Part shown: piece by piece, positions 21,802 to 57,155 of the stretch
Layout: each line of letters opens with the position of its first letter
Numbering within the stretch: position 1 is the first letter of the stretch
DNA from: a phage
NCBI GenBank assembly: GCA_037574385.1
Contig: GCA_037574385.1_4529.1
Length of the DNA stretch: 64,000 nucleotides
Strand: one strand, 5' to 3'
The notes under the pieces: model-generated
Database searches by the model: none
What the model was told of the DNA's origin: nothing
What the model saw: the letters and a program-made list of their open reading frames with translations, nothing else
Program-made: the position numbers and the translations under genes

Positions 21802-21809
21802 TATAAATA
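21802..21809 (+). promoter_or_regulatory. late promoter TATAAATA for uvsW
   Basis: Exact TATAAATA about 30 nt upstream of uvsW ATG. Confidence 0.65.
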
Positions 21810-23665: not shown

Positions 23666-23833
23666 CTATAGTAAAAGTTGGGTTTCGTTCAATTGCTCTT
23701 CTGAACTTTCTGAAACCGGTAATTGTTGGACATAATTATAACAAGGACCAGGATGTGCCGGACCTTTGTCTGTTTCAACAACCAATGCAGAATCGATTGG
23801 AGTTTTACAGACAACACAAATCTTATCTGACAT
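23666..23833 (-). CDS. small Cys-containing protein (55 aa), uvsY.-2-like position; missed by ORF track
   Basis: ATG with strong GGAGG RBS at 5-nt spacing; translation MSDKICVVCKTPIDSALVVETDKGPAHPGPCYNYVQQLPVSESSEEQLNETQLLL; possible CxxC..H..C zinc-ribbon-like spacing. Confidence 0.6.
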   Translation of the reverse strand: MSDKICVVCKTPIDSALVVETDKGPAHPGPCYNYVQQLPVSESSEEQLNETQLLL

Positions 23834-23861
23834 GATTGCCTCCTCTGAATTATATATCTAT

Positions 23862-24086
23862 TTATACCACTCGCATGCACATATCGATACCCATATCTTT
23901 TGTATAAAAATACTCGTCGATGTACCCAGCAAACTTCCCTTTAATATAAAGGACGTCTTCGCCACAAGGATGGTCCGCCAGAATACGAATATCCTGGCGA
24001 CGTAGACGATACTTTTCCATTAAGAATTTAATTTCAGTTTCAAATTCTTCATCATTATTAAAGGCATCTTCAATTGAATAACGCAT
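23862..24086 (-). CDS. conserved small protein downstream of uvsY (uvsY.-1-like), 74 aa
   Basis: Start overlaps uvsY stop; position as T4 uvsY.-1. Confidence 0.7.
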   Translation of the reverse strand: MRYSIEDAFNNDEEFETEIKFLMEKYRLRRQDIRILADHPCGEDVLYIKGKFAGYIDEYFYTKDMGIDMCMRVV

Positions 24087-24579: not shown

Positions 24580-24978
24580 TTACACTCTATTGCTTGACGC
24601 TAACTGAAGTTTAATTTGTTCAATATCGTCAGGGTTGTCTACGACCGAAAATCTAATCTCTACTATAACCGTATAGTCATCATATACTGGCGTTACACTT
24701 ACAGAAAGTTTGTCGATGCGTGGCTCATAGTTACGAACAGCTGCTTGGATATTACGCTCAATCGTATCGGCTGTAAGTGGTGTCATGTTCTCGAAAAGTT
24801 CATCAACCAAATCGCATCCAAATTCAGGGTCGAATGGGCGTGAGCCTTTTCTGGTTGTCACTATGCCAAGAAGACTATTTTTAATAGAACGAAGTCCTAC
24901 AGAACGAGCAACGTCCTTGTTCCAATCCATACGCATTTCTGGGTCGATATCTGAATAAAGTTTATTGATATTAGACAT
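24580..24978 (-). CDS. 25: baseplate wedge protein gp25
   Basis: 132 aa; MSNINKLYSDIDPEMRMDWNKDV... as T4 gp25. Confidence 0.97.
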   Translation of the reverse strand: MSNINKLYSDIDPEMRMDWNKDVARSVGLRSIKNSLLGIVTTRKGSRPFDPEFGCDLVDELFENMTPLTADTIERNIQAAVRNYEPRIDKLSVSVTPVYDDYTVIVEIRFSVVDNPDDIEQIKLQLASSNRV

Positions 24979-25604
24979 TATAATAACTCAAAGAATTCTT
25001 TGAGGCCTCGTATTGTGTGAACGTGTGACGCCCCACATTTGGGACATTTAATAGGGGTTGCTAGATAAATTGATGGCGATACCAAAAGATTTTTAATATT
25101 GATCATGTCATCTTCTGTTATAAGGCCGTAAAGGTCATTTATTTCTGCTTCAGTTAAATCTTCAACAGGGATGGACTCTCCATTGACAAAAACAGCCTCA
25201 ATACATGAAGCAATCATTAATGCGATATTTTTATCATCAAATAATTTAGGTTGACGGAACTTAATTTTAATACCACTGAACGAATACCAGGGATCGGCCT
25301 GTTCATCTAATTGAGTGTGCAATAAATTCATATAGACTTGAAATGAATGCCCACAGGAACAATTCCAGGTGTGTTCTTGATTCACTTCACCTAATGAATG
25401 TGCCCACAGATTTACCAACAATAACTCGGCTTCTTGTTTAGACAAGTTTTTAGCATTAGAGCAATTAGTGATAATATTGTTCACTGCTGATTCAATAGTA
25501 CCGGTAGCACGAGCACCTATGAGCCCTAAATATTCTTTTAAAGTAAAGGCTCTACAATTCACTTCTTTATCGCCTAAACGTACGGTAAACGTATATTTGT
25601 ACAT
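24978..25604 (-). CDS. 26: baseplate hub protein gp26
   Basis: 208 aa; synteny and length as T4 gp26. Confidence 0.9.
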   Translation of the reverse strand: MYKYTFTVRLGDKEVNCRAFTLKEYLGLIGARATGTIESAVNNIITNCSNAKNLSKQEAELLLVNLWAHSLGEVNQEHTWNCSCGHSFQVYMNLLHTQLDEQADPWYSFSGIKIKFRQPKLFDDKNIALMIASCIEAVFVNGESIPVEDLTEAEINDLYGLITEDDMINIKNLLVSPSIYLATPIKCPKCGASHVHTIRGLKEFFELL

Positions 25605-25622
25605 GTTAACTCCTTTATTGTG

Positions 25623-25634
25623 TATTTATAAATA
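25623..25634. promoter_or_regulatory. divergent late promoters for genes 26 and 51 sharing a 12-bp palindrome TATTTATAAATA
   Basis: The palindrome contains TATAAATA on both strands, about 18-19 nt from each start codon. Confidence 0.6.
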
Positions 25635-25651
25635 ATAGAAAAGGAGTAATT

Positions 25652-26404
25652 ATGGCTAATATAATTCGTTGTAAATTACCGGATGGTGTTCATCGTTTTA
25701 AGCCGTTCACTGTGGCGGATTATAGAGACTTTTTACTAGTTAGAAATGATATCGAACATCGTTCGCCGCAAGAACAAAAAGAAATAATTGCTGATCTGAT
25801 TGATGATTATTTTGGCGAGTACCCTAAAACATGGCAACCATTTATATTCCTGCAAGTTTTTGCAGGCTCTATAGGCAAAACAAAAGTTCCCGTTATTTTC
25901 ACTTGTCCTAAATGCTCTAAAGAAAAAACTGCACCATTTGAAATATATCAAAAAGAACTAGTCGAACCTGAACTTGATGTTGCTGGTATAAAAATACGTT
26001 TTTCTTTCCCTGAAAAGTTTTATGACAACAAAGCATTAATGATAAGTGAAAACATAAAAGAAATATATTATAACGATGAATGGTACCCATGGAATGATTT
26101 GACTGAAGAGAACCAAATCCAAGTAATAGAAGCAATAGACATTGACTCGCTCGAGAAGGTTATTGCTTCTATGAATCCTATTAATTTGACCCTTAGATTA
26201 GGTTGTTGTGAACGTCATGTTAAAACATACACTGATATCTTAGAGGTTTTTAAATTGTTAGTTAACCCTGATGAGATTTTTACATTCTATCAGATAAACC
26301 ATTCACTTGTAAAGAGTCAATACACATTGGATTCTATTATGCAAATGATTCCTGTTGAACGTGGTATTGCTTTAACATTAGTAGAAAAGGACCATAAAAA
26401 ATGA
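25652..26404 (+). CDS. 51: baseplate hub assembly catalyst gp51
   Basis: 250 aa; synteny (26/51 divergent pair). Confidence 0.9.
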
Positions 26405-39932: not shown

Positions 39933-40056
39933 TTTAAATTCTCAATTCGAGATAATATTTAGTAGCCACGTTCGTCTGAATTTCACCTTCTTTCGACAGG
40001 TCTCTCAGTTGTAGGCTACCGCTTAGAAGAGTGTTCTCTTCATATAGTTATTTATA

Positions 40057-54878: not shown

Positions 54879-54965
54879 TATATTTACCTTTATTTAGATT
54901 ATTTAATTTATTTACAGTTGGTTGCTACGACACTTATACCTCGTAGCTGGTATGATTTATTTATA
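54879..54965 (-). promoter_or_regulatory. gene 32 leader: late promoter TATAAATA, hairpin/pseudoknot GCUACGA...UCGUAGC and AU-rich operator
   Basis: Minus strand reads TATAAATAaatcataccaGCTACGAggtataagtgTCGTAGCaaccaactgTAAATAAATTAAATAATCTAAATAAAGG..ATG, the architecture of the T4 gene 32 translational operator. Confidence 0.75.
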
Positions 54966-54994: not shown

Positions 54995-55648
54995 TTAATA
55001 CTTACATGATTTGATTGTTTCTATGAACAATTTCTTAGCAGCATTTCCATCGATTTGAAGTATTTTTCGATATGCCTTTAATTTGGTAGAATAATTTTGC
55101 CAGACTAAATTGTCAGTAAGTTCGTCATGCTTATCTATAATATTCAAGAATGAATCCAACAACAAGAAGGTTTCAAACGAAATTATATTGCTTTGTAGCA
55201 ATTTAAATATGTAGCTCGACTGAACTTTATTATTATAATCAAATATCTCTTGAAGCGCACTAACTTCCACTTTCTTACTGAAATAGTAGATGTTACGTAC
55301 ATCTTCAGCAAACGTCTCCTTGGCCTGTTTGAGACGTCCAATATATTCCCTATAGAAAACTAATGCATCAGCGTCTGATATCTCACCAATCCATGCATCT
55401 TGGTTAGCAACTAAGTTACTGATGAATATCAAAGTGAGTTCCTTTAACTTATATTTCTCTGCTAGTTTCTCAAAGAAATATTTATCTCGGCGTTTTTGAT
55501 ACGCATTATCCGAAACACGCATGCACCAGTTATATTTGATTACGTCATACCGACCATTAAAATGTTGTTTGCACATCAAGTATAGTTTGTATACCGATTT
55601 TCCGTTAATATAACGTTCTCCATCAGGAGGCATGCGTATTTTAATCAT
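54995..55648 (-). CDS. 59: helicase loader gp59
   Basis: 217 aa; MIKIRMPPDGERYINGKSVYKLYLM... as T4 gp59. Confidence 0.96.
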   Translation of the reverse strand: MIKIRMPPDGERYINGKSVYKLYLMCKQHFNGRYDVIKYNWCMRVSDNAYQKRRDKYFFEKLAEKYKLKELTLIFISNLVANQDAWIGEISDADALVFYREYIGRLKQAKETFAEDVRNIYYFSKKVEVSALQEIFDYNNKVQSSYIFKLLQSNIISFETFLLLDSFLNIIDKHDELTDNLVWQNYSTKLKAYRKILQIDGNAAKKLFIETIKSCKY

Positions 55649-55983
55649 AATAAGAAATCTAACGTATTAGTTTTTTCACCACGAGCAACTGATGGGCGAA
55701 GCATGTTTTCGTCAATTGCTTCACTTGTAATTTTTTCAACAATTCCTGTAGGAATAAATTTAGCAAATTGTGTTTCTGGAATAGAATTTTCTTCCAAGAA
55801 AGCAGTTGTTGCTTCTAAATAAGACATACCAAATTGTTCAACCATGGATTCGATAATGAATCCGTTTTCTTGACGGTCAAGCAATTTAGCGATATCATCT
55901 TTATCGTGTTTTACTGCTAATTCTTGTTCAGATAAACCGGCCTCATCAACCGGTTTAATATCACTTAGTGAAAACTGTGTCAT
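55645..55983 (-). CDS. 33: late transcription co-activator gp33
   Basis: 112 aa; MTQFSLSDIKPVDEAGLSE... and C-terminal KTNTLDFLL as T4 gp33. Confidence 0.96.
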   Translation of the reverse strand: MTQFSLSDIKPVDEAGLSEQELAVKHDKDDIAKLLDRQENGFIIESMVEQFGMSYLEATTAFLEENSIPETQFAKFIPTGIVEKITSEAIDENMLRPSVARGEKTNTLDFLL

Positions 55984-56230
55984 AAAGCTCGACTACCTCT
56001 TCGTTTTCAGCTTCAAATTGGTCACGAGCATCTTTATGATAAAGAGCTAACAAACGATTAAACATTTTTCCATCGACGCCAAGCTCTTCTTTAGCACGAG
56101 TACGAATGTCTTTAATCAGTTCATTATAACCAGAAATTTTAAGTTTGTTATCGGAAGCTTCCTTGACTAGTTTAGCCAGTTCTTCACCATGCACATCTTG
56201 ATTAAATTCAACTGCTTCTTTCTTAGCCAT
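55961..56230 (-). CDS. dsbA: dsDNA-binding protein DsbA
   Basis: 89 aa from internal ATG (MAKKEAVEF...) with GAGGT RBS; matches T4 DsbA. Confidence 0.93.
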   Translation of the reverse strand: MAKKEAVEFNQDVHGEELAKLVKEASDNKLKISGYNELIKDIRTRAKEELGVDGKMFNRLLALYHKDARDQFEAENEEVVELYDTVFTK

Positions 56231-56237
56231 GTTTACC

Positions 56238-57155
56238 TCAGAATTCATTAATTACACTTGTTAATTTAGAAAGTCCAGATTTTACAAAGTACGAATAAAT
56301 CTTGCCTTTAGGTTGTGGTTTATATGAGTTATAATACTCTATAATGGTTGAAGCAATATTATCAGGGATATAATCAAAATCAATTAGAACCAAATTTTCT
56401 TGGTACCGTTTATATTCTTCTGCACTTAATAATACTTCAGCTTGAGAACGGTCATTAGCAATTGCTTCAATAATCGTTGTTTTCATGCTTGGAGTTCGTT
56501 CGCCTTCAACTCGAGTAAACCAGAAATCACCACGAACTCGAACAGACGCAACACCATCTTTACGGTCGCCTTTAAGAATTTTAGTCATGCAATCAATTTC
56601 GGCAGAACCATTCTTAATTTTAACCCATTTTTTCTGCGGTGGCGACCACTGTTTAACGTTAGGGTATTTGTGTAATTGTGTAAAGTCACCATCTGATGCA
56701 ACAATACACACCTTATGACCGGCTAATGACAAATATTTAGTTAATACACCGATATGGTCATCTGCTTCGTATTTGTCAATATCCATTACAACGTATGGCA
56801 TATATTTCTTAATCTCATCAACGACTTGATGGAGTGCAGTAAAATATCCTTCCCAATCCCACTTTGAAGCTTCACGATCGGTTTTACGATTTTTCTTATA
56901 ATAGTAAGCAAAGTCGCGTCGCCAATACCCAGAAGTAGCGTTATCCATGCACAATACAAATTTTGTATAACCTTGCTTACGGAACATCACTACGTTTTTA
57001 CGAATTGAATTCAAGATTACATGGCGAACCATCGGAACAGTAATTTTATCACCGTCTTCAAAGTTGTTTAATGCAGCTGCTAATGCAATGTTACTAAAGT
57101 CTGCAAGTGCAATACCTTCTTTGTAATCTTCATCCAACATCATTTCTAAATCCAT
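56238..57155 (-). CDS. rnh: RNase H (5'-3' exonuclease, FEN-1 family)
   Basis: 305 aa; MDLEMMLDEDYKEGIALADFSNIAL... as T4 RNase H. Confidence 0.97.
   Translation of the reverse strand: MDLEMMLDEDYKEGIALADFSNIALAAALNNFEDGDKITVPMVRHVILNSIRKNVVMFRKQGYTKFVLCMDNATSGYWRRDFAYYYKKNRKTDREASKWDWEGYFTALHQVVDEIKKYMPYVVMDIDKYEADDHIGVLTKYLSLAGHKVCIVASDGDFTQLHKYPNVKQWSPPQKKWVKIKNGSAEIDCMTKILKGDRKDGVASVRVRGDFWFTRVEGERTPSMKTTIIEAIANDRSQAEVLLSAEEYKRYQENLVLIDFDYIPDNIASTIIEYYNSYKPQPKGKIYSYFVKSGLSKLTSVINEF

Follow-up and report, generated by a model that had tools for sequence, protein, structure and literature searches.

A conserved 12-bp palindrome between the divergent baseplate genes 26 and 51 of a Mosigvirus phage, read as a back-to-back pair of T4-type late promoters

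The DNA analysed here (the window) is a 64,000-nt stretch from a Mosigvirus, i.e., an RB69-like T-even phage. A 1.6-kb piece around the feature under study was 98–99% identical to about 150 Mosigvirus phages, the best match being Shigella phage ESh27 (99.3%), and approximately 72% identical to T4. At this locus, genes 26 and 51 diverge from a 47-nt spacer (Table 1). Both products match PF12322 over their full length, and the records of RB69 and T4, among others, name their homologs gp26 and gp51; the gene names given in an earlier note, made from the sequence alone, were therefore right. A review of the T4 virion lists gp26 and gp51 as hub-assembly chaperones (Leiman et al., PMC3004832). Gene 26 heads a leftward unit, 26-25, followed by uvsY and further ORFs on the same strand, while gene 51 heads a rightward unit that continues with 27 and 28. 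The two genes are paralogs that share the full-length T4_baseplate domain and 28% pairwise amino acid identity (E = 3e-10). That these paralogs stand head to head, with a promoter palindrome on the dyad axis, is implicit in Pfam and seldom mentioned.

Table 1. Features at the gene 26/51 junction, in window coordinates, and further junctions that carry the same 12-mer
Feature	Position	Strand	Basis or remark
Gene 26, 208 aa, baseplate hub protein/chaperone	24978-25604	-	PF12322, E = 3e-60; homolog annotations; start codon at 25604
Gene 26 mRNA leader, ~12 nt (predicted)	25605-25618	-	Sequence; mirrors the gene 51 side
12-bp perfect palindrome TATTTATAAATA	25623-25634	.	Strand-symmetric; dyad axis between 25628 and 25629
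Late-promoter box TATAAATA of gene 26 (P26)	25630-25623	-	Taken as -13 to -6 on the minus strand
Late-promoter box TATAAATA of gene 51 (P51)	25627-25634	+	Taken as -13 to -6
Gene 51 mRNA leader, 12 nt (predicted)	25640-25651	+	Sequence and the -13 to -6 rule
Gene 51, 250 aa, baseplate hub assembly protein	25652-26404	+	PF12322, E = 5e-59; homolog annotations; start codon at 25652
Other 12-mer junctions, environmental viral contigs	L040, L045, L072, L096, L100, L152		Among the matches listed

T-even phages encode genes 55 and 45. In the window, a homolog of gp33 (phrog_254, "late promoter transcriptional regulator") is encoded at 55645-55983 and adjoins a dsbA homolog (phrog_639). The pair spans 55645-56248 on the minus strand, and the two ORFs overlap at 55961-55983, which is the translational-coupling arrangement noted for 33 and dsbA in T4 (Geiduschek review, PMC2988020).

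Read from one start codon to the other, the spacer runs CAT GTTAACTCCTTTATTGTG TATTTATAAATA ATAGAAAAGGAGTAATT ATG. The coordinates and sequence of the palindrome, its identity with its own reverse complement, and the presence of the late-promoter core on both strands were confirmed as first described. The 12-mer consists of two overlapping late-promoter boxes, TATAAATA, each a perfect match to the 8-bp consensus and each located just upstream of a late gene on the strand of that gene, with 17 nt between the plus-strand box and the ATG of gene 51 and 18 nt between the minus-strand box and the ATG of gene 26. Counted from the last base of the box to the A of the ATG, these distances become 18 and 19 nt, respectively, in agreement with the earlier note. 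The base pairs common to both boxes are the TATA at 25627-25630, corresponding to -13 to -10 of each promoter. A check of suffix and prefix matches disclosed that two perfect divergent boxes can overlap by 4 bp at most, the sole alternative being 2 bp; two such boxes thus cannot be packed more compactly than in the 12-mer.

The T4 late promoter is an 8-bp TATAAATA at -13 to -6 that functions without a -35 element (PMC1524935; PMC2988020). Each box of the palindrome resembles a canonical single promoter of this kind, such as P23, which is recognised by gp55 and activated through gp33 and gp45, in having the same octamer at the same positions and no -35 element. The palindrome differs in that two copies are fused in opposite orientation with their -13 to -10 base pairs in common, and in the short leaders described below.

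In the 64-kb window, TATTTATAAATA occurs once, compared with 0.02 occurrences expected from dinucleotide shuffles, and TATAAATA occurs 18 times against 7.7 expected, a count reached by none of 100 shuffles. A scan of the same window for alternative boxes of the two units found the next minus-strand TATAAATA upstream of gene 26 only at 40049, and the next plus-strand copy upstream of gene 51 only at 21802, beyond genes on the opposite strand.

Applying the -13 to -6 rule, transcription of gene 51 is predicted to begin near A25640, six nucleotides past the end of the box, with a Shine-Dalgarno GGAG at 25643-25646. For gene 26, the predicted start lies at about 25616-25618 on the minus strand, with its GGAG (CTCC on the plus strand) at 25610-25613. 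Both predicted leaders would be approximately 12 nt long and begin with AAAGGAG, as mirror images of each other. The other window boxes that closely precede an ORF do so at 25–34 nt (eight boxes) or 14 nt (one box); the gaps of 17 and 18 nt are shorter than most of these, and the predicted leaders would therefore be unusually short, which speaks against the promoter reading. The symmetry extends beyond the 12-mer, as the whole CAT-to-ATG spacer (25602-25654) is quasi-palindromic, with 80% complementarity between 25602-25616 and 25640-25654.

Two other roles for the spacer were considered and rejected. A hairpin or cruciform is not favoured, as the single-stranded DNA fold of the spacer was weak (-5.3 kcal/mol, z = -2.7) and its pairing came from the Shine-Dalgarno and leader arms, not from the 12-mer; a functional fold was rejected because neither predicted mRNA would hold both arms. 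A sigma-70 promoter or a terminator was likewise discarded, the scan being no better than shuffles (two promoter-like sites against 2.7 expected), and it found no site with the palindrome as its -10 element.

Overlapping late promoters for divergent transcription of the T4 baseplate gene cluster were reportedly mapped experimentally by Scarlato, Storlazzi, Gargano and Cascino in 1989 (Virology 171:475). The T4 junction has the same flanking genes in the same divergent orientation, the same 12-mer (NC_000866, 116450-116461), and a plus-strand box 17 nt from the gene 51 ATG, as in the window. It differs in the flanking spacer sequence, in a spacer length of 50 nt rather than 47, and in a minus-strand box located 21 nt from the gene 26 ATG instead of 18. 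No promoter is annotated at the 26/51 locus in the T4 GenBank records NC_000866 and AF158101, and a literature search on late promoters in palindromic or divergent arrangement found no relevant paper.

In RB69, which belongs to the same genus and whose 47-nt spacer is base-for-base identical to ours, two late promoters have been predicted here, Pl:118620 (+, score 12.7) and Pl:118672 (-, score 11.2) (Nolan et al. 2006, Virol J 3:30, Additional file 5). Both hits of the hidden Markov model (HMM) centre on the two boxes, such that P51 corresponds to Pl:118620 and P26 to Pl:118672. Nothing in the sequence sets RB69 apart; its promoters are computational predictions listed in a table, in which the palindrome is not discussed. 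Escherichia phage vB_EcoM_SA79RD (OL960576) likewise has an identical spacer and identical boxes, and carries "TATAAATA T4-late promoter" features at 118266-118273 (-) and 118270-118277 (+), annotated by similarity only. In phage fPS-2, the annotation marks the minus-strand box. The promoter pair is thus already known, as a prediction in RB69 and as an annotation in SA79RD.

Conservation of the palindrome in other T4-like genomes, the check proposed in the earlier note, was carried out on the 26/51 junction of 16 annotated phages and 14 IMG/VR contigs. A single copy of the exact 12-mer, located at this junction, was seen in 26 of 32 loci, in representatives of Mosigvirus, Tequatrovirus (T4), Karamvirus, Gelderlandvirus, Gaprivervirus, Dhakavirus, Kagamiyamavirus, Jiaodavirus, Zedzedvirus (infecting Acinetobacter), and Muldoonvirus. 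Hence the same junction, with boxes overlapping by TATA, is found in T4 and nine other genera. In an alignment of 14 lineage representatives from at least 10 genera, anchored on the palindrome, all 12 palindrome columns were invariant at 2.0 bits each, while the four columns on either side carried 0–0.6 bits and the flanks showed a mean pairwise identity of 37%. A chance origin of the 12-mer is ruled out by this invariance together with the single occurrence in the window against the low expectation from shuffles.

The extent of the conserved block is informative about which box is under selection. Of the bases outside the shared TATA, the left TATT belongs to the minus-strand box alone, and the right AATA to the plus-strand box alone. 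Since the block is exactly two 8-mers overlapped by four bases, and a single box would constrain only 8 bp, both boxes appear to be under selection. This bears directly on the possibility that only one box is active and that the match on the other strand is a by-product of an AT-rich, near-symmetric consensus. A partial match on the opposite strand does come cheaply, the TATA that forms the first half of TATAAATA being nearly self-complementary; furthermore, fPS-2 is annotated for the minus-strand box only, and the 50 listed sites of T4 late promoters have not all been demonstrated to work in vivo (Geiduschek review, PMC2988020), so that a consensus match is not by itself proof of activity. 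Against these points, it is 12 bp and not 8 that are invariant in the 14 lineages, with conservation ending sharply on both sides, the HMM scores are good on both RB69 strands, and both genes head transcription units with no other box nearby on the correct strand. We consider that one active box has a very slim chance of being the whole explanation.

The same alignment addresses a second possibility, that the symmetry is an unselected relic of the inverted duplication that made the paralogs 26 and 51. Their paralogy and the quasi-palindromic nature of the entire CAT-to-ATG spacer would be in line with such an origin. With only 28% amino acid identity left between the paralogs, however, neutral DNA of that age would have been randomised, and the flanks vary freely among genera whereas the 12-mer does not. 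Drifting flanks around an invariant 12-mer indicate ongoing selection, for which a duplication relic is insufficient; the chance that the symmetry is nothing but a relic is negligible.

Taken together, the findings show a genuine feature under strong selection, which was correctly read as a divergent pair of late promoters. The proposal of the earlier note that one palindrome holds divergent gp55-type late promoters for genes 26 and 51 is supported by the 12-bp invariance, the lack of any other nearby box, the RB69 prediction and SA79RD annotation, and the presence of the 12-mer in T4. We assign a probability of roughly 0.9 to the reading in which a pair of T4-type late promoters stands back to back in the palindrome, packed as closely as their consensus permits.

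Some lineages have other arrangements at this junction. In Krischvirus G2494 (L027, 859-877), a plus-strand TATAAATA and a ACTAAATA-like element on the other strand lie 2 bp apart and do not overlap. Aeromonas phages AhMtk13a (L028, approximately 873-882) and AS4 (L030) carry a different, 10-bp palindrome at the 26/51 junction, TATTTAAATA, which amounts to TTTAAATA on both strands with a 6-bp overlap. The Aeromonas and Krischvirus junctions are lineage-specific variants of the back-to-back design. One IMG/VR contig carries CATTTATAAATA at the junction. In Slopekvirus P-KP2 (infecting Klebsiella, L031) and Pectobacterium phage POP12 (L032), gene 51 and its upstream neighbour do not diverge, and no palindrome is present. 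In POP12, genes 54, 51, 26, and 25 are co-directional, and P-KP2 looks alike over the genes that precede 51. An inversion beside a tandem paralog pair may therefore have given rise to the T-even arrangement, or the reverse may have occurred.

Recurrence of the module elsewhere was evaluated with a pattern scan of IMG/VR for CTCC...TATTTATAAATA...GGAG, in which the flanking CTCC and GGAG were required, so that the resulting set is biased. The scan returned at least 120 such stretches, a count that is not a frequency, as chance alone could, by rough estimate, account for a few hundred matches in so large a collection; only loci with identified flanking proteins were used as evidence of recurrence. 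Among the matches listed, about 20 had at least one flanking ORF matching the gp26/gp51 profile, and in 19 both ORFs did. Several other 12-mers among the matches listed sit between divergent structural genes on contigs whose proteins are T4-like. These include, again among the matches listed, junctions between a gp13-like adaptor and an unknown protein, between a baseplate tail-tube cap and a head-closure protein, and between two tail-tube paralogs, and one contig (L152) has three such junctions. The scan shows that the 12-mer module recurs at other divergent structural-gene junctions, and it bears on recurrence only, not on frequency.

These junctions are pertinent to a third possibility, in which the palindrome would primarily or additionally be an operator for a dimeric DNA-binding protein, for example DsbA, that co-regulates both units. 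Recurrence of the 12-mer at unrelated divergent structural-gene junctions, among the matches listed, is more readily explained by a promoter module than by an operator specific to one locus, and the conserved block coincides with the two 8-mers and extends no further. The idea draws on the perfect dyad symmetry, which is typical of dimer-binding sites, on the dsbA homolog in the window that overlaps gene 33, and on the weak binding of DsbA to A/T-rich sites overlapping two late promoters; DsbA is, however, non-essential and binds with micromolar affinity (PMC2988020). An operator is not needed to account for the palindrome and fits poorly with the sharp 8+8 boundaries, and we give this possibility a slim chance.

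Returning to the promoter pair, the overlap of the two boxes raises the matter of how they could be used. The earlier note had suggested that a single recognition site for gp55-bearing RNA polymerase could serve both units, and this part of its reading does not hold, as there are two sites offset by 4 bp with different nucleotides read on each strand. In the open complex seen by cryo-EM, the bases that gp55 reads belong to the non-template strand and are flipped into pockets at -12, -9, and -8 (PMC7892883). For the rightward promoter these positions are A25628, A25631, and A25632 on the plus strand, and the corresponding bases of the leftward promoter are the adenines paired on the minus strand with T25629, T25626, and T25625, respectively. 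The bases read by gp55 thus differ between the two promoters and lie on opposite strands, which makes them two mirror-image sites and not one shared site.

According to the mechanism we propose, gp55-bearing RNA polymerase would recognise TATAAATA at -13 to -6 in either of two orientations. The plus-strand copy (25627-25634) would drive gene 51 and then 27 and 28, while the minus-strand copy (25630-25623) would drive gene 26 and then 25. Transcripts would start near 25640 (+) and 25616-25618 (-), some 6 nt beyond the respective box, giving mirror-image leaders of about 12 nt that would begin just ahead of a GGAG ribosome-binding site. Because either polymerase has to open the shared TATA and occupies tens of base pairs, and with them the whole spacer, the two mirror-image sites are almost certainly mutually exclusive, so that one orientation at a time would be used per DNA molecule. 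The active orientation may be set by that of the gp45 sliding clamp delivering the gp55/gp33 polymerase, in which case each clamp orientation would serve only one of the two promoters.

A broader proposal is that the 12-mer, instead of reflecting compaction alone, serves the T4 superfamily as a minimal bidirectional late-promoter module, selected and reusable, with exclusive orientations that each need one gp45 clamp polarity. We regard this as unlikely; recurrence of the 12-mer at unrelated structural-gene junctions is compatible with a reusable module without demonstrating it. If the proposal were true, the balance of clamp orientations that replication leaves behind would determine the ratio of 26-25 to 51-27-28 transcription, and the stoichiometry of hub and wedge components would be coupled to replication geometry.

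As a textbook-type T4 late promoter pair, the locus has small discovery value. The exact 12-bp invariance over at least 10 genera with unconstrained flanks is unusually sharp comparative evidence that both boxes are functional, and the junction is a natural substrate suited to in vitro tests of promoter competition and of gp45 clamp-polarity rules. Minor additions made here are the head-to-head paralogy of genes 26 and 51, the Aeromonas and Krischvirus variants, and the presence of the 12-mer at other structural-gene junctions.

Other late-promoter boxes were observed in passing. RB69 (AY303349, approximately 80613-80684) has a second back-to-back pair of predicted late promoters, Pl:80613 (+) and Pl:80684 (-) (Nolan et al.), whose boxes do not overlap by offset estimate. 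In the window, a minus-strand TATAAATA at 54958-54965 lies between the homologs of genes 59 and 32, downstream of the former and upstream of the latter. A further perfect TATAAATA, at 23859-23866 (-), overlaps the 3' end of the uvsY.-1 homolog; it is located 25 nt upstream of the uvsY.-2 homolog (23666-23833) and corresponds to an annotated late promoter in SA79RD.
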